Source: Planctomycetaceae bacterium (lineage in GTDB: Bacteria; Planctomycetota; Planctomycetia; Pirellulales; Pirellulaceae). Taken from it: DNA of 64,000 bases. Position 1 is the first letter of the stretch. Each line of letters begins with the position of its first letter. The position numbers and the translations under genes were made by a program. The stretch spans positions 16,956 to 80,955 of the forward strand of contig SKKK01000168.1 in NCBI GenBank assembly GCA_007121535.1, given 5' to 3'. Shown here one piece after another: positions 48,507-63,724 of the stretch. The notes under the pieces are model-generated. The model made no database searches. It was not told the DNA's origin and saw only the letters and a list, made by a program, of their open reading frames with translations.

Positions 48507-49448
48507 ATGGAAATTCAGACGGACCGCCTGCACAACGAAGATTGTATCGAGGGCATGAGCAAACTGCCGCCGGGCTGCATCGATCTGGCGTTTGCCGATC
48601 CGCCGTTCAACATCGGCTACAAGTACGACGTGTACCGCGACGATCTGGACGATAACGATTACCTCGATTCGTGCGACCGCTGGATCGGCCAGGTCGTGCG
48701 ATTGTTGAAGGACGATGGCACCTTTTGGCTGGCCATCGGCGACGAATACGCGGCCGAGTTGAAGGTGCTGATGCAGCGTCAGCACCGGCTGGTCTGCCGC
48801 AGTTGGGTGATTTGGTACTATACGTTCGGCGTCCACTGCAAGCAGAAGTTTGCACGCTCGCACGCTCATCTGTTCCAAATGGTCAAAGACCCGAAGCGGT
48901 ACACCTTTGAAGTCGATCAGATTCGCGTACCTTCAGCCCGTCAGTTGGTCTACCAAGACGCGCGTGCCGATCCACGCGGGCGGCTGCCGGACGACACATG
49001 GATTCTACGACCGCAGGATCTGCGCGAAGGTTTCTCCGGCGACGAAGACACATGGTACTTCCCTCGAGTCGCCGGGACGTTCCACGAACGCGAGGGATTT
49101 CACGGATGCCAAATGCCCGAGCAGTTGCTGGGACGAATCCTGCGAGCGTGCAGCCGTGAGGGCGAAATCGTGTTGGACCCCTTCGCGGGTAGTGGGACCA
49201 CGTTGGCCGTCGCCAAGAAACTGGGCCGCCGTTACTTGGGATTCGAGCTGTCGGCCGACTATGCTCAGAAGATCGAGCGTCGTTTGTCCAGAATCTGCGT
49301 CGGCGATCGATTGGAGGGCGCCGAGGAACCTTTGGTCAGCGCTCCCAGCACGACCGATGGCAAGCGTTGGGCATCGACCGCGTCCACAAATACACCGAAC
49401 AACAAGCGTGCTACCGGATCCCGCCAGAAACTCTTACCGGGGTTATGA
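48507..49448 (+). CDS. site-specific DNA methyltransferase (beta-class N6A/N4C, DPPF motif)
   Basis: [30 protein letters not shown] (motif IV) lies upstream of [26 protein letters not shown] (motif I). No restriction endonuclease gene is adjacent. Confidence 0.9.
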
Positions 49449-50266
49449 TCATGAAATTCGCCATTTGCAACGAAACCTTTCGGGACTGGCCTTTCGACAA
49501 AGCGTTCGCGTTCGCTCGTCAACTGGGCTACACGGGCATCGAATTTGCGCCCTTCACCATGAACAAAGATGCGCGGAAGATCACCGCCCAGCAACGTCAG
49601 GACGTCCGGCGACAGGCGGAAGCGGCGGATCTGCAGGTCGTCGGACTGCATTGGCTGCTGGCCTTTACCGAAGGCTTCTACTTGACCAGTCCCGATCGGG
49701 CGGTCCGAGCCAATACGACCGAATACCTGGCCGATTTGGCTCGATTGTGCCGCGACCTGGGCGGTCGGGTGATGGTCCTGGGTTCGCCCCAGCAGCGCAA
49801 TCTGCTGCCCGGCGTGACCCTGGACCAAGCGATGGACTATGCCGCCGCTGTCCTGCAGGGCGCCATGCCCGCAATGGAGGAATGCGGTGTGGTGCTGGCC
49901 GTCGAACCGCTCAGCCCGGAAGAGGGCGATTTTCTGCTGACGGCCGAGTTGGGCGTCGAACTGATGCACAAAGTCGCTTCGCCCCATTGCCGCCTGCACC
50001 TGGACGTGAAGGCCATGTCCAGCGAATCGCGCCCGATCCCCGACATCATCCGCCAAAACGCTTCGTACCTGGAACACGTGCATGCCAACGACGCCAATCG
50101 TCGAGGTCCCGGGATGGGAGAGATCGATTTTGTGCCCATCCTGGCCGCGCTGCGCGAGATCGATTATCAAGGTTGGGTCTCGGTCGAGGTCTTCGACTAT
50201 GAACCCGGCGTCGAGGCGTTGGCCGGGGACAGTATCCGTTACTTGCAGCAATGCTTGGCTTCATGA
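49445..50266 (+). CDS. sugar phosphate isomerase/epimerase (xylose-isomerase-like TIM barrel)
   Basis: [35 protein letters not shown]...LAVEPL...[11 protein letters not shown] 49445 overlaps the MTase stop codon (ATGA). Alternative ATG at 49451. Confidence 0.85.
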
Positions 50267-50282
50267 ACCGGAGGACCGCACG

Positions 50283-50792
50283 ATGAGCGAGGAATCCCTT
50301 CGTCGGCAATTGTTGGATTCGTTCAAGAATCGAGCCCTTTTGTATGCGCTGATCTACGAGGAACTCAGCCAGGAGGTCGGCGAGCAGCGTGCGGAAGCGA
50401 TCATGAAGCGAGCCATCCTGCGTCGCGGTCAGCAGATCGGCCAGCAGTTTCGCGATTACGCACCGGACGACTTCGCGGGACTCTGCGAGGCCTTCGTTGC
50501 AAACGTCCCCGACGATGGGCGCTTGTTCCAACCCAACGTCATCCGTTGCGATTCGCAGGGTCTGGACATCGAGCTGCAGCAATGCCCCTTGAAGACCGCC
50601 TGGGAGGAATTGGGATTGGACGAATCGCGACGAGAAACCCTTTGTCGCATCGCCGGGGAAATCGACAAAGGCACCTTCGAAGCCGCCGGCTTCGCCTTCA
50701 CCGTCGACACCTGGAAACCCGGCCGCTCCGCCTGCTGCCACCTCCACATCCGCCCCGGTCGCTCCGACGCCGCATCCACTAGTTCCACTTGA
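50283..50792 (+). CDS. L-2-amino-thiazoline-4-carboxylic acid hydrolase-like protein
   Basis: MSEESLRRQLLDSFKNRALLYALIYEEL...CPLKTAWEELGL...LCRIAGEIDKG...ACCHLHI resembles the ATC_hydrolase family as I remember it. Confidence 0.55.
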   Translation: MSEESLRRQLLDSFKNRALLYALIYEELSQEVGEQRAEAIMKRAILRRGQQIGQQFRDYAPDDFAGLCEAFVANVPDDGRLFQPNVIRCDSQGLDIELQQCPLKTAWEELGLDESRRETLCRIAGEIDKGTFEAAGFAFTVDTWKPGRSACCHLHIRPGRSDAASTSST

Positions 50793-51060
50793 TCCGTTTT
50801 CCACGCGGCCAACTCGTTGAGCCCATTTCGCGATGGAGGATCGGTTAAGCAGGAAGCTCAGCATCTCGCTCAAGAACTCTGCGGAGTCCCGAGCGGTTGA
50901 GCTATGCGATGCTGAACTGCTATTTGCTTCTCAGAAGAACGCCCCACTGCCCTTTGGCTCGGCTCTTGCAGTGTCATACGGTGACGGCAACAATAGTGAA
51001 TGCTCCTAAATCGGCCCCATTGATCGGCTCCGGTCGTGCTGACTGGCGTGAGGATTCATC

Positions 51061-54000
51061 ATGGCTCGAAAACGACAACTTTTCGCAACATCCGTCAACA
51101 ATCCGGAGAGCCGAGATAATCTGCCCGAGGGTATTACGCTCGAGCAGCAGTTGCACGCCCTCGGAAGCCCCCAAGAATTTACCAGTCTCGCGTGGTCGCC
51201 GGATGGCCAGTCGCTGGTTGCAGGAACGGTGACCGGAGTTGTGACGTTGTGGACCGCGTCTCGGGGAAAGATTCAACACGAATCCACTTGGTTGACGAAC
51301 ATCGAACGCATCTACGCCTTGGCTTGGGCGTCGGATAGCAACCGATTCGTTGTTGGTGGTCACAGCAACCGCTTCATCTTGATCGACAGGCATGAAACGC
51401 AACCCAGGACCGGACTTCGTTCTCCACTTGGTCGCTTGATATTCGGATTAGCTTGGTCCCCGGACGGTTCGACAATCGCTGTCGGGAGTGCCGCCGAGAC
51501 CATTTCCATTGTCAATGTCCAGACGGAACAGACCCAATGGACATTGAACGGACATGGTGACGATATCGGTCGTGTGGCTTGGAACCCCGACGGGCGATTG
51601 CTGGCGTCGGCATCTGTAGACTGTACCGCTGCGATTTGGGACGTATCTTCCGGTGGGATGCTGCGCCGATTGTCTGGGCACTCTGAACCGCTTTCGTGTG
51701 TCGCTTGGCTACATCACGATCAGCACGCTGTTACGGCAGCGTTTGATCACTCGTTGCGCATATGGAACGCCGAATCGGGCGAGCAAATCGCCATGCTGGA
51801 GGGCCATGCGGACCGGGTTTGGTGTGTGTCCGTCATGTCCTGTGGCAGCTTGGCGGCGTCGTATGGCGAGGACGCGATTCGGTTCTGGCGTTTCGACAGA
51901 TTTGAACCGGTCGAAGTGATTCACCAAGAAGGGCTTTCTGGCAGATTGCAATCACTCGAATTCCATCCCACCGAGCCCATCCTTGCCGCCATCACAGACG
52001 GCGGTCAATGCATCTCGCTCTGGCGTTTGGATGTTCCTCGCTTGTTGCATTCACCCAAGCCGCCTGATACGATCCGGTACGCGAACGCCAAGGTGGTCGT
52101 GGTCGGCGATACGGGCGTGGGCAAATCCGGGCTGGCGATCCGTTTGAAGGACGACCGGTTCGAGCAGACCGAGTCGACGCACGCTCGCCGTGCGACGGTC
52201 CTGGACGCTGAGATGGTGGACGATCCGGTTGCTCCCGGGCGGCAGATCGCGCACGAGACACTGCTCTGGGACCTGGCCGGGCAACCCGGTTACCGTTTAG
52301 TCCACCAATTGTCGCTGGACGATGCGGTGGTGGCGCTGGTGTTGTTCGACGCCCGCAGCGAGACCGATCCGTTCAGCGGCGCTGCGTACTGGTCAAAGGC
52401 GCTCGGCCAGGCGCGATCCAACGTACCGATCAAGAAACTGTTGGTGGCCGCGCGCGTCGACCGCGGCGGCGTGGGCGTCAGCCGCGAGCGGATCGAGCGG
52501 TTCGTGCAGGAACACGGCTTCGACGGGTTCTACCGGACCAGCGCTTTGACCGGCGAAGGGCGCGAGGAGCTGCTGAACGCGATCCGCCGCGCGATCCCGT
52601 GGGAACGGTTGCCGATCGTCTCGTCGAACCGGTTGCTTTCCGATCTTCGAATCTTCCTCCGCCAGCGCCGTGCCGACCCCAACCAGCCGCTGATGGTCAC
52701 CGCGGGCGAACTGTGGCAGGAGGTCCGGCATTCGAACGTGCTGGACAACGTACCCGATGCCGACGGCAAGCGGACGTTCGACCAGTTCGCCGCCAGCCTG
52801 CAGCGGCTGCACGAAGCGGATGTGATCGAATTGCTGAGCTACCAGAGCACCGACCGGAAACCAACGCCGGATATCGACGTACTGCTTGAGCCTACATTCG
52901 TAGATGCCTACGCTTCGGCGGTTATCCTGGCAGCGCGGGACGAACCGGATGGACTGGGACATCTACCGGAGTCCGACATCTTGAAAGGCCGCTTCCCGCT
53001 GGATCCGGCCGAGCGTCTGACCGATGGCGACGCGGAACGCAAGGTGCTGGTAATGGTAATCGAGCGGTTCTTGGATCGGGAGATCGCGTTCCGCGAGCGC
53101 ATCGACGGCGTGGATTATTTGGTGTTTCCGTCCCAATACACCCGCGAAGCGCCGTTTCCGGGCAGCAGCTCGTATGGCATCCGATACGATTTTGCCGGCC
53201 CGCTGCTTAGCATCTTCGCCACGCTGGCCGTCCGCTTGGCTCACCATTCGGGATTCGGCAGCCGACAGTTCTATCGCAACGCGGCTGCCTACGAACCTGC
53301 GGACGGCGGGCGGTGTGCGATCTTGTTCGAGGACCTCGACGAGGGCCGTGGCCGGTTGTCGGTCTTCTTCGAAGACGGGGTGACCATCGAATCGCAGGGC
53401 GTCTTTCTGGAGTACGTCTACGAACACTTGCTGCGCAAGGCCCTGCCAGGCAGCATCGTTCGCCGACGGGCGTATCATTGTCGTAAGTGCGGTTATCTGT
53501 TCGACGATCGGGTGGTCGAACGCCGGTTGGAACGAGGCGATGATCAGATTGTTTGTTCCAATTGCGATACGCGATCGCCGCTGTACGATCTGCTGCTGGC
53601 GCCCAGCGACCGTGATCGCGAAGCGATTGCTCGGATCGATGCCGAGGCGCGCTCCGGGATGCACCGTCAGTTGGCCGTCACGGCGATCCAGGGTAAGAAA
53701 CGCAGTGGAGCGTTCGATTTGTACTTAGCGTATCCGCCTACGGACCGCGACGCGGCGTTATGGTTGGCGGAATGGCTGCAAGCGTTGGGGCTGCGTCCCT
53801 GGCTGGACGTCTGGCAAGCGGTACCGGGTCAGACTTGGGAACAGACGCTTGCATCATCGACGGACCGGATACGAGCGGTTTTGGTGGCTGCCGGTTCAAG
53901 CGAACGGCAGGTTTGGCACGATACGTCACAAGCGAAGGTGCTGGCTGCGTTCGCCGAACGGCAAGCCCGCTTCTCGATGGCGCGGCTGCCGCGGGCCGAC

Positions 54001-55836
54001 CCCCCGGAATCGGTGCGCGAGACAGCGCTCCAAGAGGCTCCGGGAGCCGACGTTGCCCCGTCGATCAAATTCCTCCGAAACCGAACTTGGGTCGATCTGC
54101 GCTGGCCGGATGCGGAGGATGTGGAACCGTTCGAAGAATGCCTGCGGCAATTTCTTGGGCGACCTTCGCACGAGTTTGGAGCATCCGAACGGACCCGGGA
54201 AGTGCTGGCATGGAAGCTGGAAGACGAGCGGCGACGGCGACAGTGGGTCGATGCACACCGCGATGCTGCCACCCTGATTCGCTTGGTCCCCGATTCGAAA
54301 CCGGAGACATTCGGCAGCGATGGTCCGGAATCGTTGCGTCTTCAGATTGCGGAAGCGATCGGGATGCCGTCTGCATTCGTCTCGGTTTTTAACCAACAGA
54401 TCTCACCGCCGCGAGTCACGCTCCGGTTCGCGGTCCCCGAGGACGCTGAGCGGCTGCTCGCGATGGTCCAAATCGACGATCCGTTCCTGATCGAAGTGCT
54501 GAACCGCTGGGCGGTCGATCGCACGAGGTTCCACAGCCACAACCAGAATGCACTGGCGCCCCTGAAAACGCACTTAGCAGGGAAGTCGCTCACGTCAACG
54601 CGTGCAGTAGGCCGGATTGAACCCCGGGAAAGGCCGCCGGAGCAGCAACCAGCCGTTCAGATCCTGCGCGTTCGGATGAAAAACTTCCGTTGCTTTGAGG
54701 AACTCTCGTTGGATTTGGACCGTCCCTCGACACTCGGCGGCTTCTGGACTTGCTTGGTCGGTATTAACGGCTCGGGAAAATCGTCCATCTTGCAAGCGAT
54801 CTGTATCGGACTGCTCAGTCAGCCGACGGTCCACGAGTTGGGCCACGGCTCGCTCGAGCGGCTGCGCCGATTGCATGACGGTCGCCGCCAGGATCTGGAA
54901 GTGACGATCCACTGTCGCGACATGGACGGCAACGAATTCGACGAATGGATCACCATCAAAGCGGACGGGGTTCGGTCGGGCCGGCGGGCGCGGCGTCTGC
55001 TTAAACCGGCAGCGATGGACCGATCGCTGCTGGTCGTCTCCTACGGGGCGACGCGGAATCTGTCCGAAGCGACGGATACACGGCACGCGGACAAGAGCGA
55101 CGAAGCACAACGGCAGATGACGCTGTTCGATCCGCTGGCAAGTGTCGCCAGCGCGGAATCTCTGTTGACCGCAAGAAACCAGGATACGGGGTTTCTGCGA
55201 TTGTTTGCGCAATTGGTGAGCGAGGTTTTCGGCGAGCATTTGCGGATTGAGCCGCGAGACGGCGGCGTGGCGTTCCGTACCGAAGGAGAGATACTGGACG
55301 CCGTCGAGTTGCCGGACGGATTCCGATCGAGTGTAGCGTGGATGGCCGATCTGTGCCAGGCATGGTGCCTGCGGTTCCCCGAGCGGGCGAGCCAAGCCAG
55401 TCCGGCCGACATCGAAGCGGTCGTCTTGATCGACGAAATCGATCTGCACCTGCATATGTCGCTGCAAAGAGAACTGGTGCCGGCGTTGCGAAAAGTGCTG
55501 CCGCGGGTCCAATGGATCGTCTCGACGCACTCGCCAATGATTCTGACCAGTTTCGACCGTCACGAGATCATGGCCTTGGATCGAAGCGAGCCCAACGGCC
55601 TGCGGGATTTGGACCGGCAGATTCTCGGCTGGACGACCGACGAGGTGATCCACTGGCTGATGGAAACTCCGGCGACCAGTCTGGTCATGGAGGAGAAGTT
55701 GCGCGAGACTGCGCGATCGGGCGGTGATCAATCGGATTTGGCGGTCCTCCTGGAAACATCCGACCAGGTGGATGAAAAGGACGCTCGTCGCCGGGTGGCT
55801 GCCCTGAAATCGCGTCTGGAGAAATACAAGCCATGA
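51061..55836 (+). CDS. 1591-aa multidomain protein: WD40 repeats - Roc-type GTPase/COR-like - zinc ribbon - TIR-like - PtuA-like ABC/AAA_15-21 ATPase
   Basis: - WD40 blades (LAWSPDG.., AWNPDGRLLASASVDCTAAIWD, DHSLRIWN), ~51170-52040.
- GTPase G1 GDTGVGKS (52105-52128), G3 DLAGQ (52270-52284), G5 TSAL.
- CRKCG...CSNCD ribbon (53479-53570).
- FDLYLAYPPTDRDAALWLAEWLQALGLRPWLDVW (from 53713).
- NFRCFEEL + GINGSGKS Walker A (54760-54783), VVLIDEID Walker B (55420-55443), STHSP. Confidence 0.9.
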   Translation: MARKRQLFATSVNNPESRDNLPEGITLEQQLHALGSPQEFTSLAWSPDGQSLVAGTVTGVVTLWTASRGKIQHESTWLTNIERIYALAWASDSNRFVVGGHSNRFILIDRHETQPRTGLRSPLGRLIFGLAWSPDGSTIAVGSAAETISIVNVQTEQTQWTLNGHGDDIGRVAWNPDGRLLASASVDCTAAIWDVSSGGMLRRLSGHSEPLSCVAWLHHDQHAVTAAFDHSLRIWNAESGEQIAMLEGHADRVWCVSVMSCGSLAASYGEDAIRFWRFDRFEPVEVIHQEGLSGRLQSLEFHPTEPILAAITDGGQCISLWRLDVPRLLHSPKPPDTIRYANAKVVVVGDTGVGKSGLAIRLKDDRFEQTESTHARRATVLDAEMVDDPVAPGRQIAHETLLWDLAGQPGYRLVHQLSLDDAVVALVLFDARSETDPFSGAAYWSKALGQARSNVPIKKLLVAARVDRGGVGVSRERIERFVQEHGFDGFYRTSALTGEGREELLNAIRRAIPWERLPIVSSNRLLSDLRIFLRQRRADPNQPLMVTAGELWQEVRHSNVLDNVPDADGKRTFDQFAASLQRLHEADVIELLSYQSTDRKPTPDIDVLLEPTFVDAYASAVILAARDEPDGLGHLPESDILKGRFPLDPAERLTDGDAERKVLVMVIERFLDREIAFRERIDGVDYLVFPSQYTREAPFPGSSSYGIRYDFAGPLLSIFATLAVRLAHHSGFGSRQFYRNAAAYEPADGGRCAILFEDLDEGRGRLSVFFEDGVTIESQGVFLEYVYEHLLRKALPGSIVRRRAYHCRKCGYLFDDRVVERRLERGDDQIVCSNCDTRSPLYDLLLAPSDRDREAIARIDAEARSGMHRQLAVTAIQGKKRSGAFDLYLAYPPTDRDAALWLAEWLQALGLRPWLDVWQAVPGQTWEQTLASSTDRIRAVLVAAGSSERQVWHDTSQAKVLAAFAERQARFSMARLPRADPPESVRETALQEAPGADVAPSIKFLRNRTWVDLRWPDAEDVEPFEECLRQFLGRPSHEFGASERTREVLAWKLEDERRRRQWVDAHRDAATLIRLVPDSKPETFGSDGPESLRLQIAEAIGMPSAFVSVFNQQISPPRVTLRFAVPEDAERLLAMVQIDDPFLIEVLNRWAVDRTRFHSHNQNALAPLKTHLAGKSLTSTRAVGRIEPRERPPEQQPAVQILRVRMKNFRCFEELSLDLDRPSTLGGFWTCLVGINGSGKSSILQAICIGLLSQPTVHELGHGSLERLRRLHDGRRQDLEVTIHCRDMDGNEFDEWITIKADGVRSGRRARRLLKPAAMDRSLLVVSYGATRNLSEATDTRHADKSDEAQRQMTLFDPLASVASAESLLTARNQDTGFLRLFAQLVSEVFGEHLRIEPRDGGVAFRTEGEILDAVELPDGFRSSVAWMADLCQAWCLRFPERASQASPADIEAVVLIDEIDLHLHMSLQRELVPALRKVLPRVQWIVSTHSPMILTSFDRHEIMALDRSEPNGLRDLDRQILGWTTDEVIHWLMETPATSLVMEEKLRETARSGGDQSDLAVLLETSDQVDEKDARRRVAALKSRLEKYKP

Positions 55837-56840
55837 GGACGTTGGTGCCGACGAGCCTGTTATCGCCGACTCTGACCAAAGAGGGTGTGGGCGGCCGACT
55901 GGCCGCAAGACACGTCAATGACCGCCACGAAGATTCCACCGCGCGACTCACCTTTCCCAGCCATTGGAACTTACCGGACGTGCGCGGCCTGCTGTACGCG
56001 CGGCATTGGCGCGTCTGCGCGTTCTGCGGTTGCGATTTGCCTCGCAATGACCGAGGCGACGTCGAACATTTTCGGCCCAAAGGAAAGGTAGAAGAAGATG
56101 CCGATCACGGCGGATACTGGTGGTTGGCCTACGATCTGAATAACTACCTGCTCAGTTGTTCGCTGTGCAATCGCGTTCGCAAGCGAGACCGTTTTCCGTT
56201 GCGGCCCGGCGCTCGAGTCCGGACCACATATTCGCAGCGCCGGCGTCTGCGGACAGAAGGACGATTACTGCTGCACCCTGAGTGGGATCCGGTAGAGGAT
56301 TGGCTGCGGGTCCGATGGGAAGAATCGTTATGTTTGATCACGCCTCAGCAGCACCTGTCCCCAGCCGCGCGAAAACGTGTGCAGTTGGTTATCGACTTCT
56401 TCAGTCTGAATCACGATGTGCGGCTGGTGCGTGAGCGAAATCGACTTCGTGACGACGTACTGGACGCCTTGGATCAGGAACGCGGCGAGGATGCAAAGTA
56501 CATGGCACTCCGATTTCGACCGCACAGTCTGGTAGCCAAACAGATCTTGGCGAATCGTGCGCTGCAATACCTTCCGACCATCGAGGAAGAACTGCGGTGG
56601 TTGCTGCACGTCGCCTTGAAGGAATTGCTCGTTGCAGTCGAATTGCAGGACCGGTCGGGCTTGACGGACAGTCCTCATGAACGGCTGACGAAAGAACTAC
56701 TGTGGACTTTGGCAGCGTTGTGCTTGGAACCTTTGACGGGCAACCGCGCCGATGTCGAATCGCTGTTAGAGGATGCTGACATGACAGAAATCGTACGGCC
56801 TTTCATAGATGCTTTCGCACGTGCATATGAAAACCCATAG
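55833..56840 (+). CDS. PtuB/TIGR02646-like HNH endonuclease
   Basis: The ATG overlaps the upstream TGA (ATGA). CAFCGCDL..RGDVEHFRPKG...GYWWLAYDLNNYLLSCSLCNRVRKRDRFPL is the CxxC...(D/E)HFxPK...CxxCNxxK HNH pattern (core 56016-56200). Confidence 0.85.
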   Translation: MRTLVPTSLLSPTLTKEGVGGRLAARHVNDRHEDSTARLTFPSHWNLPDVRGLLYARHWRVCAFCGCDLPRNDRGDVEHFRPKGKVEEDADHGGYWWLAYDLNNYLLSCSLCNRVRKRDRFPLRPGARVRTTYSQRRRLRTEGRLLLHPEWDPVEDWLRVRWEESLCLITPQQHLSPAARKRVQLVIDFFSLNHDVRLVRERNRLRDDVLDALDQERGEDAKYMALRFRPHSLVAKQILANRALQYLPTIEEELRWLLHVALKELLVAVELQDRSGLTDSPHERLTKELLWTLAALCLEPLTGNRADVESLLEDADMTEIVRPFIDAFARAYENP

Positions 56841-56940
56841 GCCAAGGGCGGCAGATTCCGCTGCATCGAAAACGCCGTCCAACCGTTTAACCGGCAGCCG
56901 AAGGCGCCCGCTGAAACGATCAACCAACTACAAAGCGGCT

Positions 56941-57001
56941 TTTCCGAAAACGACTCCCGGCCCCTTCCGAAAAACGCAACACCAATTCATTTGCCGATCG
57001 G
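56941..57001 (+). repeat. truncated copy (right arm + tail only) of the ~125-nt hairpin element
   Basis: TTTCCGAAAACGACTCCCGGCCCC + TTCCGAAAAACGCAACACCAATTCATTTGCCGATCGG. The left arm is absent. Confidence 0.7.
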
Positions 57002-57015
57002 AAGGCGTCGGGGCG

Positions 57016-57633
57016 ATGCTTAGGCAAGGGATCGAGACGATGATTGAAATCAAATACACTGGCGACGCACTTTGGGAAAGGATTGAACGAGCCGTGGAAA
57101 AAGTGAAGGACCGCCTGCGTCGTGTAACTCGCGCGTTGAATTCCGCCAACATTCCGTACGCGGTCATTGGGGGTAACGCCGTACAGCACTGGGTTTCCCA
57201 AGTCGACGAATCGGTCGTCCGAAACACGCGCGACGTGGACATTATAATGAATGAATCGGATTTGGAGCGAGCCATCCGGGCTTTGGCGGTCGAGGGATTC
57301 ATCTATCGACGAACTGCCGGAGTCACCATGTTTCTGGATGGCGCGGACGCCAAAGCGCGTGACGCAGTCCACGTCGTATTCGCGGGAAAGAAAGTCCGCG
57401 AAGAATACCCCGAACCGGTTCCAGAAATCGACAGGTACGAACTCATGGAAGACGTCCGTACGTTACCGTTCGAGCGCTTGGTCGCGATGAAGTTGACCTC
57501 CTTTCGAGACAAGGACCGTGTTCATCTCCGCGATTTGATATCCATCGGCCTGATCGACCGGAGCTGGCTCAATCGCCTGAGTCCAGAACTGCGAATACGA
57601 TTGGACAAACTGCTGAACGACCCCGATGGCTAA
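57016..57633 (+). CDS. nucleotidyltransferase-fold protein (AbiEii/DUF6036-like), putative
   Basis: IPYAVIGGNAVQHWV....RNTRDVDIIM (GG..[n]..D.D NTase pattern) and C-terminal KLTSFRDKDRVHLRDL. Alternative start ATG at 57040. Confidence 0.55.
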   Translation: MLRQGIETMIEIKYTGDALWERIERAVEKVKDRLRRVTRALNSANIPYAVIGGNAVQHWVSQVDESVVRNTRDVDIIMNESDLERAIRALAVEGFIYRRTAGVTMFLDGADAKARDAVHVVFAGKKVREEYPEPVPEIDRYELMEDVRTLPFERLVAMKLTSFRDKDRVHLRDLISIGLIDRSWLNRLSPELRIRLDKLLNDPDG

Positions 57634-57857
57634 TGGCCGCGTCTGGTCCTTCAATGCTATGTCTCACAGTTTAGAACGAAATCCCGTCACCGGATTGGGA
57701 ACTCGATTGGCATCAATATCTGATTCTGTTGAAGTGGAGTCCCGCAAGATCAGCGTGGCTGAATCGGAACGAGCGTGTTCAGTTTGTCGCATTCTGGCCT
57801 GATTTCGAAGTTTCTCGCACGCCCATTTCCATTCCGTGACCGGTGGTAGCCTGGCAT

Positions 57858-59906
57858 TCAGTCGATGGCTGCTTGCAAGTCTGGCAGATCGTAGACGGTC
57901 AGCGCTCCCTGGACCGTGTGGACCAGTTGATCGGAAGCCAATGGTTTCTCGACAACCTGCTCGAAGGACGGCAATGCTCCGTGGATCTCCACCGCACCGA
58001 AGAAACTGCGTTCCAGGGCGGCAGCGTGCAGAGCCGGAATGGCCGTTTGGGCACCGTGGGCGACCAGATGCACGCCGCCATCGCCGGGGACCAGGCTGCG
58101 AGCCACCCGAGCGGTGACCAGGATATCCTCTGCCCGCATCGCCACGTAGGAGCGGCCCAGCATGTACGCCACCGCGACGTTAGCGCCGTCGTGACCGTTG
58201 CGCGCACCGTACCACTGGTTCTGCTCGCTTCGCGTCTCGCCCAACCCCCGCAGATCGACGGCCAGCACCGCTTGGCCCGCCGCCACTCGCTGCTTGATAC
58301 CGGCAATCGCCGCGTCCGCCGACTTGCCCTGCTCGTCCAGCCACAACACGACTTGTTCCGCACCGTCGTCCGGAACGAACGCCAGCGCCGGCAGGACAAT
58401 TCCCGGTTCCGGCTCGATTACCCATTGATCGACTCGAAAGCCGTCGCGCTGGAACTGGCCCACGTGCCGCGGTTCGGGCACTTTCAACTGCTCCAGCCGC
58501 CGGATGCCCGTGATACGTCGCACTTCGTCCCACATCGCTTGCCCTCGGTCGCGCCAGGCCGCCTGGCGCTGCTGCCGCAGACGCACCATCAGGTCCCGGT
58601 TGATCGCATACACGTCCCGCGCGCCCTCGATATCCATCACCTGCCCCGTCGGTGTCACCTGGATCTCGGCCTCTGTCAAGACCTCCAGATCCTCCGGCTC
58701 ACGCACCTCTCGCTCCTGGCCGACCAGCCAGCGCAGCATCCAGGCGACGGTCGCTTCGCGCAGCCGGGTATGCCAACCGTGGGGGCCGACGGTTTCCACC
58801 AGGTCGATTTTTTCCGCGGCATTCAACCGCTGGAAGACAACTTGGGCTGTTTCGACCGAACTTCGCGTCCCATCGATCGGGAAGAAATCTTCGGTCGCCG
58901 CACAGACCAGCACGGGCATCGGCGCCCGCATGACCAGGTATCCCCAGTGATCCAAGCCCACACCCAACTGGCCCGCTACATTCTGCTCGGCGTCACCCGG
59001 CACGTCGCCCCGCTCCCGGATCCGGCCCAGCCAATGCTGGAAATCCGTAATGTAGCACGCCGGCGCTGCCGCCTTTAGACGGTCCTCGATGCCCATCACC
59101 AGCGACGTTTGAGTCCCGCCGCCACTGTTGCCGGTCATCCCCAGCCGGTTCGCGTCGATGTCCGCTCGCGACTCCAGATAGTCCAGGCAGCGCATGGCGT
59201 CGTGGATCATGAACTGAGCCGTATTGTTACCCAGCAGCATCGATCCGACTCCCAACGCATTGTGAGCCTGCGTGCCCCACACCACGGTGCGCCCCTGCTC
59301 GTCGCGCAACTGAATCCGCTCGCCCTGGTCGATCGGATCGAAGATCAAAGCGGCGATCCCATTCAAAGCCAGCAGCGCGGCGCCTTGTTGATATCTTGGA
59401 CTCGCCTTGCCATTCTGGGCGTGTCCACAGGCCAGCAGCACCGCAGGATACGGCGGCTTATAAGGTTCCGAGTCGGGCAGGAACAGGGCCGCCGTCACAT
59501 AATGTCCCGGCTGAGCTTCCAACAGCACCTTCTCGACCTGATACGCGTCCCGCTGGAGCGTGCCCGTCACTCGGGCATTCAACGGGGTGTCCATCGGCGG
59601 CAAGCCGCCGATTGCTTCGACGAACCAAGTTCGCATCGTCTGCTGCCACTGCCGGATCTGCTCGGGATCGGTGCGGTCCAGCATCGCTTGTCGAGCCTGC
59701 TGCATCTGCTGGTTGGCCTGGTCCAACAGGTAGCGGACCATCATCTGCTCCGCAGGCGCCTCGCCTGCCTTCCCGTCGAGCACATCCCACGCGGGCGGAT
59801 CAGCCCCCGCCGTTTGAACGTCCCCAACGCACCACAGACTGACCAACAATACGGCAAGAAGCCCCCCGCCGCAAGATCCCCGCAACGACCCAAAGCATTT
59901 CGTCAT
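57858..59906 (-). CDS. secreted alpha/beta hydrolase (GxSxGG nucleophile elbow)
   Basis: Signal peptide MTKCFGSLRGSCGGGLLAVLLVSLWCV.., LGMTGNSGGGTQTS. 682 aa. Confidence 0.8.
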   Translation of the reverse strand: MTKCFGSLRGSCGGGLLAVLLVSLWCVGDVQTAGADPPAWDVLDGKAGEAPAEQMMVRYLLDQANQQMQQARQAMLDRTDPEQIRQWQQTMRTWFVEAIGGLPPMDTPLNARVTGTLQRDAYQVEKVLLEAQPGHYVTAALFLPDSEPYKPPYPAVLLACGHAQNGKASPRYQQGAALLALNGIAALIFDPIDQGERIQLRDEQGRTVVWGTQAHNALGVGSMLLGNNTAQFMIHDAMRCLDYLESRADIDANRLGMTGNSGGGTQTSLVMGIEDRLKAAAPACYITDFQHWLGRIRERGDVPGDAEQNVAGQLGVGLDHWGYLVMRAPMPVLVCAATEDFFPIDGTRSSVETAQVVFQRLNAAEKIDLVETVGPHGWHTRLREATVAWMLRWLVGQEREVREPEDLEVLTEAEIQVTPTGQVMDIEGARDVYAINRDLMVRLRQQRQAAWRDRGQAMWDEVRRITGIRRLEQLKVPEPRHVGQFQRDGFRVDQWVIEPEPGIVLPALAFVPDDGAEQVVLWLDEQGKSADAAIAGIKQRVAAGQAVLAVDLRGLGETRSEQNQWYGARNGHDGANVAVAYMLGRSYVAMRAEDILVTARVARSLVPGDGGVHLVAHGAQTAIPALHAAALERSFFGAVEIHGALPSFEQVVEKPLASDQLVHTVQGALTVYDLPDLQAAID

Positions 59907-60343
59907 CTGTTTTTCTCCTGGTAAGCATCACGACCGCCACTTGACCCCGCCCAATATACCACAAACCATTCCAGGCCGCACTCTTCCGAAAAGGTGCCGC
60001 CCACCAATCTTGGCCGCAGTTCGTCTGCCGGTTCGCCGCACGCGATGTCGGCGGATGCACAGCGCAACGGCAAGCATCATCGTTCGGGGCAACGTCTGGT
60101 CCGTGAATGTTTTTCCGGCACGGCCGGGTAGATGGCTCGCAAGGCCTCGACAGATCGCATGAGTTTGTTGACGTTCCGTTCCGAATCTCGCGTGGCCTCA
60201 GTTTCGATGGCGGCTTTTGCCGGCATTTGCCGTAGCGCGTGAATTCGGACCGAAACAGCATTGTTTTTCCGGTAGGGCCGAGCCACAATAGGAAACGGTA
60301 CGGGCATCATGGCCAAGGCTTTGGTTGCTTGAAGGAGGTTCGC

Positions 60344-63300
60344 ATGCGGGTTCTAGCCATCTCCTGCTGGGTATTGAGCGTGTTGTGGTGCGCGATCGGT
60401 TGGTCCGATGGCGGAACGACGCCGTCCGGTTCGAACATCGAGGCGTCCACTTGTCGCACCCGAGAGTTGATCGACCTTGATTACGTCGAACAGTTCTTGC
60501 TGTATCAGATCCGGACCTTGCGAGATCTTCCGGCGCGAGCCGGGCCCGTTTCGACGTCTGCCGATGCGATGGGTGCGGTGGATGGGATCAAGGATGGTAA
60601 GTATGGATTCCATACCGGCCGGGAACCTCATCCCTGGTGGCAGGTGGACTTGGAGGACGCCGGTTTGGATGGCATCGAACGAGTGGTGATCTACAACCGC
60701 TTGGATTACCCGCCCGGCGTCGCCAATGCTACCCGGTTGGCGATTTTGACTTCGAACGACGGCCACACGTGGACGGAGCGATACCGGCACGACGGCAGTC
60801 CCATCGGTGGGGCGATCGAAAACGATCCTTTGGTCGTGCGCTTTGCACCGCAGCAGGTGTCGGCGCGATGGGTGCGAATTCAACTGATCAGCGAAGAAGC
60901 CATCTGGCACCACCTGGATCAAGTGGAGGTTTACGGTACCGCCGATCCGCAAAAGAACCTGGCCGCCGGTCGTCCTGCAGACCAAAGCAGTATCAGCCCC
61001 TGGTCGGTGAATCGCGTGGTGGCACTGGACTTGCCGCCCGAACAGCGGCGCGCTGCGGGTCAGTGGCTGTCCGCGATGGATGCACGCGATGGATTGAATC
61101 CAAGACCCGTTTCCGGATTCATCTCCGGTCCGCTGCTCAAGCGATACGGAGCGATATGCGCGGATCGAGGCCGCGCTCAAGCCGAACGTCTGGCACGGCA
61201 GGGCGTGTCGGTCGGCGACGCGGTCGCGGAACTCGACTATGCGGCGGGGCGCCTAAAGGCTCTGCCGGACGATGCACCGACCGAACGGTTGTTGGACGCC
61301 TATCTGGAACTGAGATGGGCGGTGCGCCAGATCGTTTGGCGGCACCCGGCATGGGATGTCGAAGCGTTGCTTTTCTACACGCGTCGCGATGGTTTGATCT
61401 TCCCGGATGTCTCCAGCATCGCTTTGCCGTGGGTGGGATCGCCCGGCGGTGACTTGCAGGTGCTGACCGTAGATCGGACAGGTCAAACCTTTGGCTCAGT
61501 CCGTCCGTTGTTGAAAGACCGTCTGGCTCCCGGCCACGTCCGGGGATTCGATTTGCACTTCGATGCCCGTCGCCTGGTGTTCGCCTGGACGCACAGCGAC
61601 AAGGATTTTTCCCGGCATCCCGTTCGGCCGGGCCACGAAACCTTCCAGCAGATGGGCTCGGGGTGGATCTACGAACTGTGCCTGGACAGCGACACCATCC
61701 GGCAAATCACCAGTGGCCAACGGGTGCATGATGCCGAGCCCGCCTACCTGGCCGACGAACGAATCGTTTTCATGTCCAACCGCAGCCGATCCAGCATGCA
61801 GTGCAACCAGGGGCAACACGAAATCCACCCCAGTCTGTACGCTTGTGACCCGGACGGTAGTCGCCTGGAACGCTTGGACAACAATCTGACGGGCGACTAC
61901 AACCCGCGTCTGCTGAACGATGGCCGGATCGGCTATATGCGATGGGAGTACAACGAGCGCTCGTTCAACAATCCGCATGCCTTCTGGGTCATGCGACCGG
62001 ACGGCACCTATCCCGAACCGATCTACGGCCAGCATCTCAGCAACCCGATCATGCACACCAATGCTCGGAACATCGCCAATAGCCGCAAATTCATGTTGGT
62101 CGTTTCGCAGCACTACAACTTTCAACGCGGCGTCCTCGGCGTGCTGGATCCCTCGCTGGGTATCCGGAACCCCGATGCCGTCCAGCCCCTCTTGCCCTGG
62201 ACCTCATGGCAAGGGATGAGCGGCATGCCGACCACCAACGCCGAACGGGGTTGGTTCGCCGACCCTTGGCCGCTGGCCGAAGATCTGGCGATCTGTTCGT
62301 ATGATTACTCGCCCGACCAGTACCAAGTGAACGGCTTCGGCTTGTATTTGGTCGATGGTAGCGGCAACCAAGAGTTGATCTACCGCGACCCGGACTTCTC
62401 TTCCCATCACCCGGTGCCGTTCCGGCCACGAACTCGACCACCTATTCTTCCGCGAAGCTGTGACTCGCCGCCCGCCCAATCGCCGCCGACGTCACCCATC
62501 GGTTACCACAACCAGGCAGGGGAAGGACTGCTGTTGCTGACCGATGTCCTGTCAGGATTGGAAAACGCCGTCTTCGAAACGCCCCAGGACGCTCCCCGTT
62601 ATCTGCGAGTCAGTGAATCGATGGTGCTGCCCTATTTCGATTGCGTGGGCCAGACCGTGTACCGGCATGACGGATGTGACAGCGAGAACTGGACCCCCAA
62701 GCGGATCGTCGGCGACGTGCTGCTGCAACCGGACGGCAGCGCGCATTTTTCGGTCCCCGCCGATCGGTCATTGTACTTCCAACTGCTCGACGGCCACGGG
62801 CGCGAAATCCGGCGTATGCGTTCCTGGGTCAGTTTGAAGTCTGGCGAGGTGCGTTCCTGTACCGGGTGTCATCAGGAACAGATGACTGCGCCGTCGGCAC
62901 ATACGGGAGTATCGTTAGCCGCCAGCCTGCCCGCTGTGACGCCCGTACCGCGAGTCTCGTGGGACGATCGACCGGTCAGCTTTCACCGCGACATTCGCCC
63001 GATCCTGGATCACGCCTGTGCGAGTTGCCATACCGGGCTGAAGCCCGCCGGCCAACTTGATGTCACCGATCCTCAGGCCGCTCAGCGGCTGCAGTCCCTG
63101 GCCGCTTTTTCGCCGGCGATGGATGGAGCTTGGGTCAGCCAAGTTCATCAGTTCGGTTCGCATCGAGCCCCCCTTTTCCAAATCCTGACAGACGAAGCGC
63201 ACGGGGAAACGTTGAACCTGAGCGAGCAACAATGGATCGACTTGCGAGCTTGGGTCGATCTGAACGCCCCCATCCACGACCGTTGCCGCATCGTGTGTTC

Positions 63301-63724
63301 CAGCGTCCAAGCCCCGTACGGCTATAGTCCCCAAGGCGATATTCTCTTGCCACCCGCCGACGCGCGTTCCGTATCGATGGAATTGGACGATACCATTCTT
63401 CATCCTGTATTCGAGCGGCGCTGCGCGGCATGCCACGAGCATCCCGAGTTAGTATTCCGCTCACACTGGGTCGACATGCAATCCCCATCGGCCAGTCTGT
63501 TCTTGCAAGGTCCGTTAGCCGCCTCTCCCGGCAGCGGGTCACGTTGCGGACCGGCCGTTTTTGCCGACGCGGATGATCCCGACTATCGGAAACTGCTCGA
63601 TCACCTGCATTCCGCCCTCGCCGATGCTTGGCGGCATCCCGATTTGGACTTGATTCCCCTGGTAGAAGATGGCCGAACGCCGCGATGGGTGACCTTTGAC
63701 CAGGGGTATAGTGCGCCAAAGTAA
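60344..63724 (+). CDS. secreted F5/8 type C (discoidin) + PD40-like propeller protein with three CxxCH motifs (paralog of 25683-27872)
   Basis: GAAGGAGG RBS and a signal peptide. AVDGIKDGKYGFHTGREPHPWWQVDLED...VVIYNRLD (discoidin); SCTGCHQEQ, FHRDIRPILDHACASCHTG, RRCAACHEH. Confidence 0.85.
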   Translation: MRVLAISCWVLSVLWCAIGWSDGGTTPSGSNIEASTCRTRELIDLDYVEQFLLYQIRTLRDLPARAGPVSTSADAMGAVDGIKDGKYGFHTGREPHPWWQVDLEDAGLDGIERVVIYNRLDYPPGVANATRLAILTSNDGHTWTERYRHDGSPIGGAIENDPLVVRFAPQQVSARWVRIQLISEEAIWHHLDQVEVYGTADPQKNLAAGRPADQSSISPWSVNRVVALDLPPEQRRAAGQWLSAMDARDGLNPRPVSGFISGPLLKRYGAICADRGRAQAERLARQGVSVGDAVAELDYAAGRLKALPDDAPTERLLDAYLELRWAVRQIVWRHPAWDVEALLFYTRRDGLIFPDVSSIALPWVGSPGGDLQVLTVDRTGQTFGSVRPLLKDRLAPGHVRGFDLHFDARRLVFAWTHSDKDFSRHPVRPGHETFQQMGSGWIYELCLDSDTIRQITSGQRVHDAEPAYLADERIVFMSNRSRSSMQCNQGQHEIHPSLYACDPDGSRLERLDNNLTGDYNPRLLNDGRIGYMRWEYNERSFNNPHAFWVMRPDGTYPEPIYGQHLSNPIMHTNARNIANSRKFMLVVSQHYNFQRGVLGVLDPSLGIRNPDAVQPLLPWTSWQGMSGMPTTNAERGWFADPWPLAEDLAICSYDYSPDQYQVNGFGLYLVDGSGNQELIYRDPDFSSHHPVPFRPRTRPPILPRSCDSPPAQSPPTSPIGYHNQAGEGLLLLTDVLSGLENAVFETPQDAPRYLRVSESMVLPYFDCVGQTVYRHDGCDSENWTPKRIVGDVLLQPDGSAHFSVPADRSLYFQLLDGHGREIRRMRSWVSLKSGEVRSCTGCHQEQMTAPSAHTGVSLAASLPAVTPVPRVSWDDRPVSFHRDIRPILDHACASCHTGLKPAGQLDVTDPQAAQRLQSLAAFSPAMDGAWVSQVHQFGSHRAPLFQILTDEAHGETLNLSEQQWIDLRAWVDLNAPIHDRCRIVCSSVQAPYGYSPQGDILLPPADARSVSMELDDTILHPVFERRCAACHEHPELVFRSHWVDMQSPSASLFLQGPLAASPGSGSRCGPAVFADADDPDYRKLLDHLHSALADAWRHPDLDLIPLVEDGRTPRWVTFDQGYSAPK

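Follow-up and report, generated by a model that had tools for sequence, protein, structure and literature searches.

A predicted Septu-type ATPase-nuclease pair whose ATPase is joined to a WD40-Roc-TIR protein in a Planctomycetaceae bacterium

Septu, known from the E. coli structures 8EE4, 8EEA and 8SUX and represented in PADLOC by PtuA1 and PtuB1, consists of an ATPase gene followed on the same strand by a gene for an HNH nuclease. Its PtuA is a stand-alone protein of ~400-550 amino acids (aa), and the solved PtuBs have 206-234 aa. Infection sensing by Septu and the control of PtuB by PtuA are only partly understood, and in the solved systems either self-assembly or a retron acts as the regulator. 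Here we describe a PtuA/PtuB pair in a stretch of 64,000 nucleotides (nt) from a Planctomycetaceae bacterium (assembly GCA_007121535.1, contig SKKK01000168.1, positions 16,956 to 80,955 of the forward strand), called the window below. Gene order and strand are those of Septu, and both window proteins match its profiles, its folds, its Walker A, Walker B and H-loop motifs and its HNH residues. The window PtuA, however, is a fused variant, the C-terminal quarter of a 1591-aa protein (open reading frame A, ORF A) that also contains a WD40 propeller, a Roc-type GTPase and a TIR domain, and the window PtuB (ORF B) carries a helical extension of ~107 aa that the solved PtuBs lack. On balance, and by analysis of sequence and predicted structure, we favour the interpretation that the locus encodes a Septu-type anti-phage effector module with the ATPase built into a single sensor-switch protein.

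The closest structural matches of both window proteins are the retron I-A complexes (Ec78/Eco7 and Ec83), in which PtuAB likewise stands under a separate sensing and regulating unit; in retron Ec78 an N-terminal extension of PtuA docks the regulator (PMC12819146). Retron I-A systems comprise a reverse transcriptase, a non-coding RNA and multicopy single-stranded DNA (msDNA), none of which is involved at the window locus. No reverse transcriptase was found near the window PtuAB, and the window PtuA showed no sign of the msDNA-binding flap of retron PtuA. Whereas the retron regulator is a separate entity, that of the window would be covalently fused and protein-based (WD40, GTPase and TIR).

A third group of known proteins, among them the Roco proteins of eukaryotes and bacteria, resembles the N-terminal part of ORF A. 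Kaur et al. 2021 (PMC8195603) predicted that conflict systems are formed by prokaryotic AP-GTPase (Roc)-COR proteins, which begin with repeats and end in a variable effector, TIR being one of those found. They share with the window protein the layout of a repeat sensor, a Roc-like GTPase, a conserved domain and a TIR at the effector position, and in both cases the family is large and swaps its C-terminal modules (guanylate cyclase or PD40 in the window family, which also has variants with an extra N-terminal TIR). In contrast to the LRR of the AP-GTPase-COR proteins, the repeats of the window protein are WD40, its homology to COR is undemonstrated and its TIR is apparently dead. An ABC ATPase with a partner HNH protein as the C-terminal module, present in the window, is unmentioned in the searched parts of PMC8195603. 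A literature search for Septu or PtuA joined to WD40, Roc or TIR found no description, although an earlier one elsewhere is possible. The individual parts are known; joined in this way they are rare, and within the literature searched the arrangement is new.

The features of the PtuA/PtuB pair, all on the + strand, are as follows.

51061..55836, + strand: ORF A, 1591 aa, ATG start (ORF list and translation)
54646..55836, + strand: PtuA-type ABC ATPase domain, aa 1196-1591 (PADLOC, Pfam, NCBIfam, PDB, AlphaFold2 (AF2) with Foldseek)
54760-54783, + strand: Walker A, GINGSGKS, aa 1234-1241
55309-55329, + strand: signature-like motif, LPDGFRS, aa 1417-1423
55420-55455, + strand: Walker B/D-loop, VVLIDEIDLHLH, aa 1454-1465
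55519-55536, + strand: H-loop, VSTHSP, aa 1487-1492
55833..55836, + strand: ATGA junction, start codon of ORF B over stop codon of ORF A
55833..56840, + strand: ORF B, 335 aa, ATG start (ORF list), a PtuB-type HNH nuclease (PADLOC, NCBIfam, AF2, Foldseek)
56016-56171, + strand: HNH core, C62xxC65, DVEH79FRPK, N104...C109xxC112-N113
56517..56837, + strand: helical extension of the long PtuB, aa 229-335, ~107 aa (AF2 model, alignment)

The PtuA-type ATPase and the long PtuB

All ABC motifs of ORF A were located within its last ~390 residues, as a first-pass annotation of this DNA had claimed, from Walker A through the signature-like motif and the Walker B/D-loop to the H-loop; Walker A, Walker B and the H-loop are intact. 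The PADLOC PtuA model matched aa 1200-1512 with a best E-value of 2.8e-44, and Pfam reported AAA_15 (4.7e-19) and AAA_21 (3.4e-17). When the ATPase domain sequence was compared with the PDB, E. coli Septu PtuA (8EE4) was matched at 1e-19, together with the PtuAs of retrons Ec83 and Ec78. A model of aa 1031-1591 made with AF2 had a predicted local distance difference test (pLDDT) score of 83.6, and its top 50 Foldseek matches were all PtuA chains. The PtuA-like assignment made in the first pass is well supported by these matches, and by sequence and model ORF A ends in a complete PtuA-type ABC ATPase of ~396 residues with predicted catalytic motifs intact.

An alternative to immunity is a role in housekeeping or signalling, with an ABC ATPase of the SMC/Rad50 kind and an HNH nuclease serving DNA repair or recombination under GTPase control. 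The ATPase did give weak matches to the N-terminal regions of Rad50, SbcC, RecF and SMC, and the locus is flanked by ordinary metabolic and transport genes. However, the Rad50/SMC matches covered the Walker A region only, at E-values of 1e-4 to 1e-6, whereas the PtuA matches covered the whole domain at 1e-30 to 1e-44, and the structural matches were exclusively PtuA and PtuB. The patchy distribution of the relatives described below, their frequent decay and their swapped effector domains (TIR, SIR2, PNP, Metallophos) are also typical traits of defence genes and not of core repair genes, and we consider a housekeeping role very improbable.

ORF B was matched by the PADLOC PtuB model over aa 30-208 (E=6.5e-34). 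A Pfam scan of ORF B gave no match, and TIGR02646 reached 3.6e-07, below its cut-off in NCBIfam. A profile of the ORF B family found PtuB chains only in the PDB (5e-11 to 2e-9), and in the profile alignment H79 of ORF B falls on the histidine of IEH57FRPRGK in Ec78 PtuB, where the H57A substitution abolishes HNH function (PMC12819146). The AF2 model of ORF B (pLDDT 94, pTM 0.91) had significant Foldseek matches to PtuB chains only (probability 1.0; TM scores, normalised to the target, of 0.55-0.64), and these chains belong to retron Eco7/Ec78 and to E. coli Septu (8EEA_G). The first pass had likewise taken the HNH protein for a PtuB; no clustering with unrelated HNH families was seen, as PADLOC, NCBIfam, the PDB profile search and Foldseek all returned PtuB, and ORF B is a PtuB-type HNH nuclease whose predicted active site is intact. 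Both proteins scored far below the NCBIfam equivalog cut-offs, ORF A with NF041760 (retron Ec78 PtuA; 2.5e-30, 105.9 bits, cut-off 500) and ORF B with NF041761 (PtuB; 39.1 bits, cut-off 150). They are therefore classed here as distant members of the PtuA/PtuB families and not as equivalogs of the retron type.

The PtuB profiles and the solved PtuB folds account for aa ~30-228 of ORF B, and in the AF2 model the remaining aa 229-335 form five helices. An extra helical region of ~200 residues (56200-56840) had been described at the C-terminus in the first pass; the region exists but has only about half that size. It is conserved across 40 aligned homologues, with an invariant W291 and the motif ELLWxLAxLWxDPP, and most of the 286 matches of the subfamily are 320-337 aa long with 93-99% coverage, so that the extension can be said to define a "long PtuB" subfamily, as judged from the alignment. 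An exhaustive HMMER search with the extension alone gave 28 matches. Apart from two long repeat proteins, each matched in several stretches, these were short fragments or the C-termini of PtuBs. One armadillo repeat was also weakly similar, and this similarity and the repeat-protein matches suggest that the extension is a stack of HEAT/ARM-like helical hairpins. The N-terminal extensions of the partner PtuAs vary from ~70 to >1200 aa while the PtuB extension stays constant, and for this reason its most probable contact is the core of PtuA, or else the substrate, and not the N-terminal modules.

Two further arrangements were observed in PtuA sequences. ORF B also matched the N-terminal part of the 726-773-aa "PtuA" models PDLC00292, PDLC00288 and PDLC00291 of PADLOC. 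In some PtuA proteins (e.g., 7503-9866 of L049; P and L numbers are our labels for related proteins and genome loci, respectively) a PtuB-like HNH region is fused at the N-terminus, with a separate PtuB gene still following.

The ATGA junction between the two genes

ORF A and ORF B share 4 nt, the ATG of ORF B (55833-55835) lying over the TGA of ORF A (55834-55836) in the sequence ...tacaagccATGAggacg... (context aagccATGAgg). The overlap, and the start of the HNH frame at the embedded ATG, had both been reported in the first-pass annotation; the former was confirmed by the ORF list and the sequence, and the latter by an alignment in which the N-terminus of ORF B, MRTLVPTSLLSPTL (MRTLVP..PTL), matches the pattern MRxLRRPxxxxPTL of 39 homologues from residue 1. 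Because the alignment begins with the first residue, the ATG at 55833 is, on this comparison, the true start of ORF B and no artefact of ORF calling.

The junction was compared among loci with the same PtuB subfamily, with the PtuA stop and the PtuB start placed by means of the conserved MR..RR N-terminus. An exact 4-nt NTGA overlap, with ATG, GTG or TTG as the start codon, was present in 21/26 related loci (15/20 after removal of same-organism duplicates), and PtuA-PtuB gaps of 1-88 nt were found in the remaining five. In the distant fused relatives the gap was 2 nt (L002) or 13 nt with a GGAG (L003). Since the overlap recurs with different start codons in most of the non-redundant loci, the tight junction appears to be a conserved trait, beyond what chance would produce.

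When genes overlap in bacterial operons they most often do so by 4 nt, and one possible interpretation is that the ATGA reflects mere operon compaction, with PtuB translated independently from a ribosome-binding site of its own. A GGAG 11 nt 5' of the PtuB ATG would fit this interpretation, as would the loci with gaps in place of the overlap. However, the geometry is kept while the start codon and the flanks diverge, pointing to selection on the junction, and the weak starts GTG and TTG would require initiation by the terminating ribosome. We hold simple compaction to be the less probable interpretation, though one that deserves serious weight. A junction geometry kept amid diverging sequence is the pattern expected of termination-reinitiation coupling, and translational coupling of PtuB to ORF A is in this sense supported comparatively.

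The first pass had also held that the coupling implies stoichiometric co-production of the two proteins. The conserved overlap supports the coupling, but not the equimolarity: coupling would set a PtuA:PtuB ratio, not a 1:1 output. The solved complexes are PtuA6:PtuB2, in which PtuB is held between the C-terminal domains of PtuA (Li et al. 2024, as cited in PMC12065111), and PtuA4:PtuB2 (PMC12819146). A promoter scan of 50000-58200 found none, and terminator-like sites were fewer there than in shuffled sequences, a result that is uninformative for this organism.

The fused N-terminal modules and their relatives

In the first-pass annotation the N-terminal remainder of the giant ORF served only as background; its fusion to the ATPase is the unusual feature of the locus. 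Upstream of the PtuA domain, ORF A contains the following modules.

51148..52035, + strand: WD40 beta-propeller, aa ~30-325 (Pfam WD40 and many propeller models, best 3.5e-62)
52084..52605, + strand: Roc/Ras-like small GTPase, aa 342-515 (Pfam Ras 1.4e-16, Roc 3.9e-14)
52606..53445, + strand: conserved post-Roc domain of ~280 aa, aa 516-795 (family conservation)
53446..53700, + strand: Zn-ribbon-like segment, aa 796-880 (two CxxC pairs, weak Pfam zinc-ribbon/FYVE matches)
53701..54150, + strand: TIR domain, aa 881-1030 (Pfam TIR_2 2.8e-11)
54151..54645, + strand: linker domain LNK, aa 1031-1195 (AF2 model)

The GTPase has its predicted catalytic motifs intact (G1 GDTGVGKS, aa 349-356; G3 DLAGQ, 404-408; a G4-like AARVD, 463-467; G5 TSAL, 493-496), and its best PDB sequence matches were Rab7L1, Rab32 and Rab38. 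The post-Roc domain occupies the position of COR in Roco proteins. The Zn-ribbon-like segment (CRKCG, aa 807-811, and CSNCD, aa 832-836) is conserved across the family. LNK, which had no Pfam match, is predicted by AF2 to be a folded alpha/beta domain (residues 13-148 of the modelled segment, pLDDT ~80-93) followed by a flexible linker (residues 147-160, pLDDT <50), and it also occurs after the TIR in some relatives that have other C-termini and no PtuA (e.g., P0018, P0021 and P0024).

A search of 5.8 billion proteins returned thousands of relatives of ORF A. Among the best 120, 86 have the architecture WD40-Roc-X-ZnR-TIR, are ~1000 aa long and end soon after the TIR, while 13 add an N-terminal TIR, 10 add LNK and 7 carry PtuA. 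Variants with the second, N-terminal TIR include P0033, P0044, P0045, P0053, P0057, P0062 and P0067; P0035, P0036, P0043 and P0058 end in a guanylate-cyclase domain (PF00211), and others in PD40. Judged from these architectures, the N-terminal 1030 residues of ORF A belong to a WD40-Roc-X-ZnR-TIR family that normally ends at the TIR, and the effector positions of the family are modular at both ends.

The fused form is not confined to the window. The identical ORF A protein was found on 8 contigs (ENA, NCBI and three Logan runs; several independent samples), which rules out an assembly artefact as the origin of the giant ORF. The same fused architecture was seen, with PtuB downstream, in P0004 and P0005 at 51% identity (P0005 in L001), in a 1621-aa protein of a marine Planctomycetota metagenome-assembled genome (L011/L012/L021, >20 contigs) and, at 30% identity, in P0052 (L003) and P0068 (L002). 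Every fused homologue is followed directly by a PtuB gene and, conversely, in each of the 80 genome loci retrieved by the PtuB profile the gene directly upstream encodes a PtuA-type ATPase, unless the contig is cut there. By these comparisons the fusion is real and old. The PtuA domains of P0052 and P0068 share only 24-25% identity with the window PtuA, yet these systems are matched by the PADLOC models for PtuA and PtuB that match the window pair; the fusion may have had one origin or two. Several copies are damaged. Most of Roc is missing from L004 (86% identity), where PtuB is frameshifted as well, L009 is in many pieces, and a frameshift interrupts the giant gene in both L010 and L093. In L093 a gene of 440 aa also separates the fragments of PtuA from those of PtuB. 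Some of these decayed or frameshifted copies may be long-read sequencing errors. The locus L010 at first resembled a split operon of a sensor gene, PtuA and PtuB; this was rejected, as a three-frame reading revealed one frameshift in the C-terminus of the TIR, after which the coding sequence runs on in the neighbouring frame.

The modules are conserved to different degrees, as measured by the identity of the window protein to P0004/P0005. The most conserved (60-72%) are Roc (69-72%), the post-Roc domain (60-62%) and the Zn-ribbon; the least conserved (32-41%) are WD40 (about 32-40%), TIR (37-38%) and LNK; the PtuA domain is intermediate (54-56%). This pattern fits putative roles as sensor, switch and scaffold.

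In the TIR of the window protein the W-x-x-x-E motif is absent, the sequence being W952-H-D-T-S956 (aa 950-956 = 53908-53928). An alignment of the C-terminal TIRs placed a glutamate at W+4 in 105/110 relatives without PtuA (e.g., PWQDMEI), whereas the four closest PtuA-fused relatives have alanine at this position. P0014, a frameshifted fusion, has arginine and P0008 alanine, and the distant fusions P0052 and P0068 keep the glutamate. The TIR of the window protein is thus probably inactive. Loss of the glutamate in the PtuA-fused clade of the window, against its retention in nearly all non-fused relatives, suggests that PtuAB took over the effector role from the TIR, and the simplest reading would be that the TIR has been kept for structure or assembly.

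It could be argued that NAD+ depletion or signalling by the TIR is still the main output and that PtuA/PtuB forms an accessory arm of a dual-effector system. P0052 and P0068, with their W+4 glutamate, and the abundant two-gene TIR-PtuA systems described below, which also retain a "CRKE" glutamate, speak for such a view, and for this reason a dual output of TIR and nuclease is plausible in parts of the family. For the clade of the window, however, Ser956 and the alanine of the four closest fused relatives speak against it, as does the TIR being among the least conserved domains of the clade while Roc is strongly kept. We consider a TIR-led system possible for P0052 and P0068 but not for the clade of the window, and as an account of the locus quite unlikely.

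A search with aa 1031-1591 of ORF A, together with genome loci (proteins P0241-P0360, loci L013-L037 and L094), placed the PtuA domain in a subfamily in which N-terminal modules are habitual. At 40-50% identity many PtuAs have an N-terminal TIR (~560-700 aa) and many a calcineurin-like phosphoesterase (Metallophos, ~750 aa); a PNP_UDP_1 domain (~770 aa) is also found, and others have little or no N-terminal extension (~400-480 aa, e.g., P0269 and P0290). The genome loci add Metallophos with TPR, TPR alone and SIR2, the first exemplified by a 1332-aa stop-to-stop ORF of Corallococcus coralloides KYC2213 (NZ_CP172866, L027). Wherever examined in this subfamily, the downstream gene is a long PtuB. 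The TIR-PtuA proteins have small TIRs with the "CRKE" glutamate kept and pair with a long PtuB, as in L094. Such systems (e.g., P0297 with L094, Bryobacteraceae) resemble the window in their PtuA subfamily (40-50% identity) and in a long PtuB with the extension and an overlap or near-overlap. In contrast, their TIR is of another subtype, its glutamate is kept, and the WD40, GTPase and post-Roc domain of the window protein are missing. The TIR-, Metallophos-, PNP_UDP_1-, TPR- and SIR2-PtuAs each have a single small effector-like N-terminal domain, whereas the window protein has several modules. Set beside these relatives, the window gene is, on this sampling of sequences, more elaborate than any other known system of the form "N-terminal module + PtuA, plus long PtuB".

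The fusion might also be incidental, the PtuA domain and PtuB being an ordinary Septu that shares a polypeptide with an independent WD40-Roc-TIR system. Both halves are common alone: WD40-Roc-TIR proteins of ~1000 aa are abundant, and P0269 and P0290 are PtuAs of the subfamily that nearly or entirely lack an extension. The flexible, low-confidence linker between LNK and PtuA in the model would also suit such an arrangement. On the other hand, the fused architecture persists from 86% to ~30% identity, and the loss of the TIR glutamate in the clade of the window leaves the N-terminal half without an effector of its own. Functional integration is the more natural reading since this PtuA subfamily habitually carries N-terminal modules, and we judge an incidental fusion unlikely.

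Proposed mechanism and genomic neighbourhood

How might such a protein work? If Septu, retron I-A and Roco/STAND-like switches are taken as models, the variable WD40 propeller would first bind a phage-derived ligand, and the Roc-type GTPase with the conserved post-Roc domain would then act as a nucleotide-dependent switch of the oligomeric state. The non-catalytic TIR and LNK may serve as assembly surfaces that gather the PtuA heads, and the resulting PtuA dimers or oligomers would clasp PtuB with their C-terminal domains, the arrangement seen in the Septu structures, and license the HNH site. PtuB would finally cut nucleic acid, and the infected cell would be arrested; both nicking of DNA and cleavage of tRNA have been reported for Septu and retron Eco7. 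Septu cleaves tRNA-Tyr (PMC13096335), and stand-alone PtuAB nicks DNA less when ATP is present (PMC12819146). The gene overlap would make PtuB synthesis hinge on the translation of ORF A, so that the toxic nuclease would never be made without its keeper, and the ratio of the two would be fixed, with PtuB probably sub-stoichiometric. A bolder proposal, which we put forward tentatively as possible but short of probable, is that a WD40-fed Ras-like GTPase controls a Septu ATPase/HNH in one polypeptide, with the TIR NADase demoted to a scaffold. This would be an effector replacement and the first GTPase-gated Septu-type nuclease.

Several observations weigh against a sensor-switch module of this kind. 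A 13-sequence family profile of the post-Roc domain found no PDB match, and Pfam scans of the 13 members found neither COR nor any other match; the phrase "Roco-like switch" is therefore an analogy only, since these searches showed no homology of this domain to COR. The W+4 glutamate is taken here to be the catalytic one, an assumption drawn from the motifs of SARM1 and plant TIRs. Among the related loci no clean split form, with a sensor gene and a separate PtuA gene, was found, the apparent ones being frameshifted, and the fusion thus gains no Rosetta-stone support. The decayed relatives (L004, L009 and L093) may mean that the system is costly or often lost. The immediate neighbourhood is no clear defence island, and near the DNA methyltransferase gene at 48507-49448 no restriction endonuclease was recognised.

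If the arrangement works as proposed, it suggests a way in which a sensor and a switch can be coupled directly to nucleases of the PtuAB type, and it would offer a testable model in which a third kind of regulator is hard-wired to the same nuclease. The fusion links the Roco/AP-GTPase conflict proteins, so far only predicted, with Septu, two groups previously studied apart, and the loss of the presumed catalytic residue of the TIR in the PtuA-fused clade is an evolutionary hint of effector replacement. The swappable N-terminal modules of PtuAs with a long PtuB also imply that annotation tools may under-describe the diversity of Septu.

Three neighbouring genes were annotated on either side of the pair.

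48507-49448, + strand: type II-like N6/N4 DNA methyltransferase, overlapping the next gene by 4 nt
49445-50266, + strand: xylose-isomerase-like TIM-barrel protein (AP_endonuc_2), overlapping the methyltransferase gene by 4 nt
57016-57633, + strand: nucleotidyltransferase (NTP_transf_5/DUF6036, weak AbiEii), 205 aa, 176 nt downstream of PtuB

A 274-aa ORF from 56809 that overlaps the end of PtuB was dismissed as an over-extended call of the nucleotidyltransferase gene, and the nucleotidyltransferase itself was rejected as a part of the system, as it is not conserved beside the relatives. Three further features of gene content point to a Planctomycetota host. Farther downstream, a large protein encoded at 60239-63724 (+ strand) combines F5/8 type C domains with middle domains of the hydrazine-synthase-alpha type. 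A BBP7 gene is present on a flanking contig (L005), and PSCyt/PSD genes occur in loci of related organisms.

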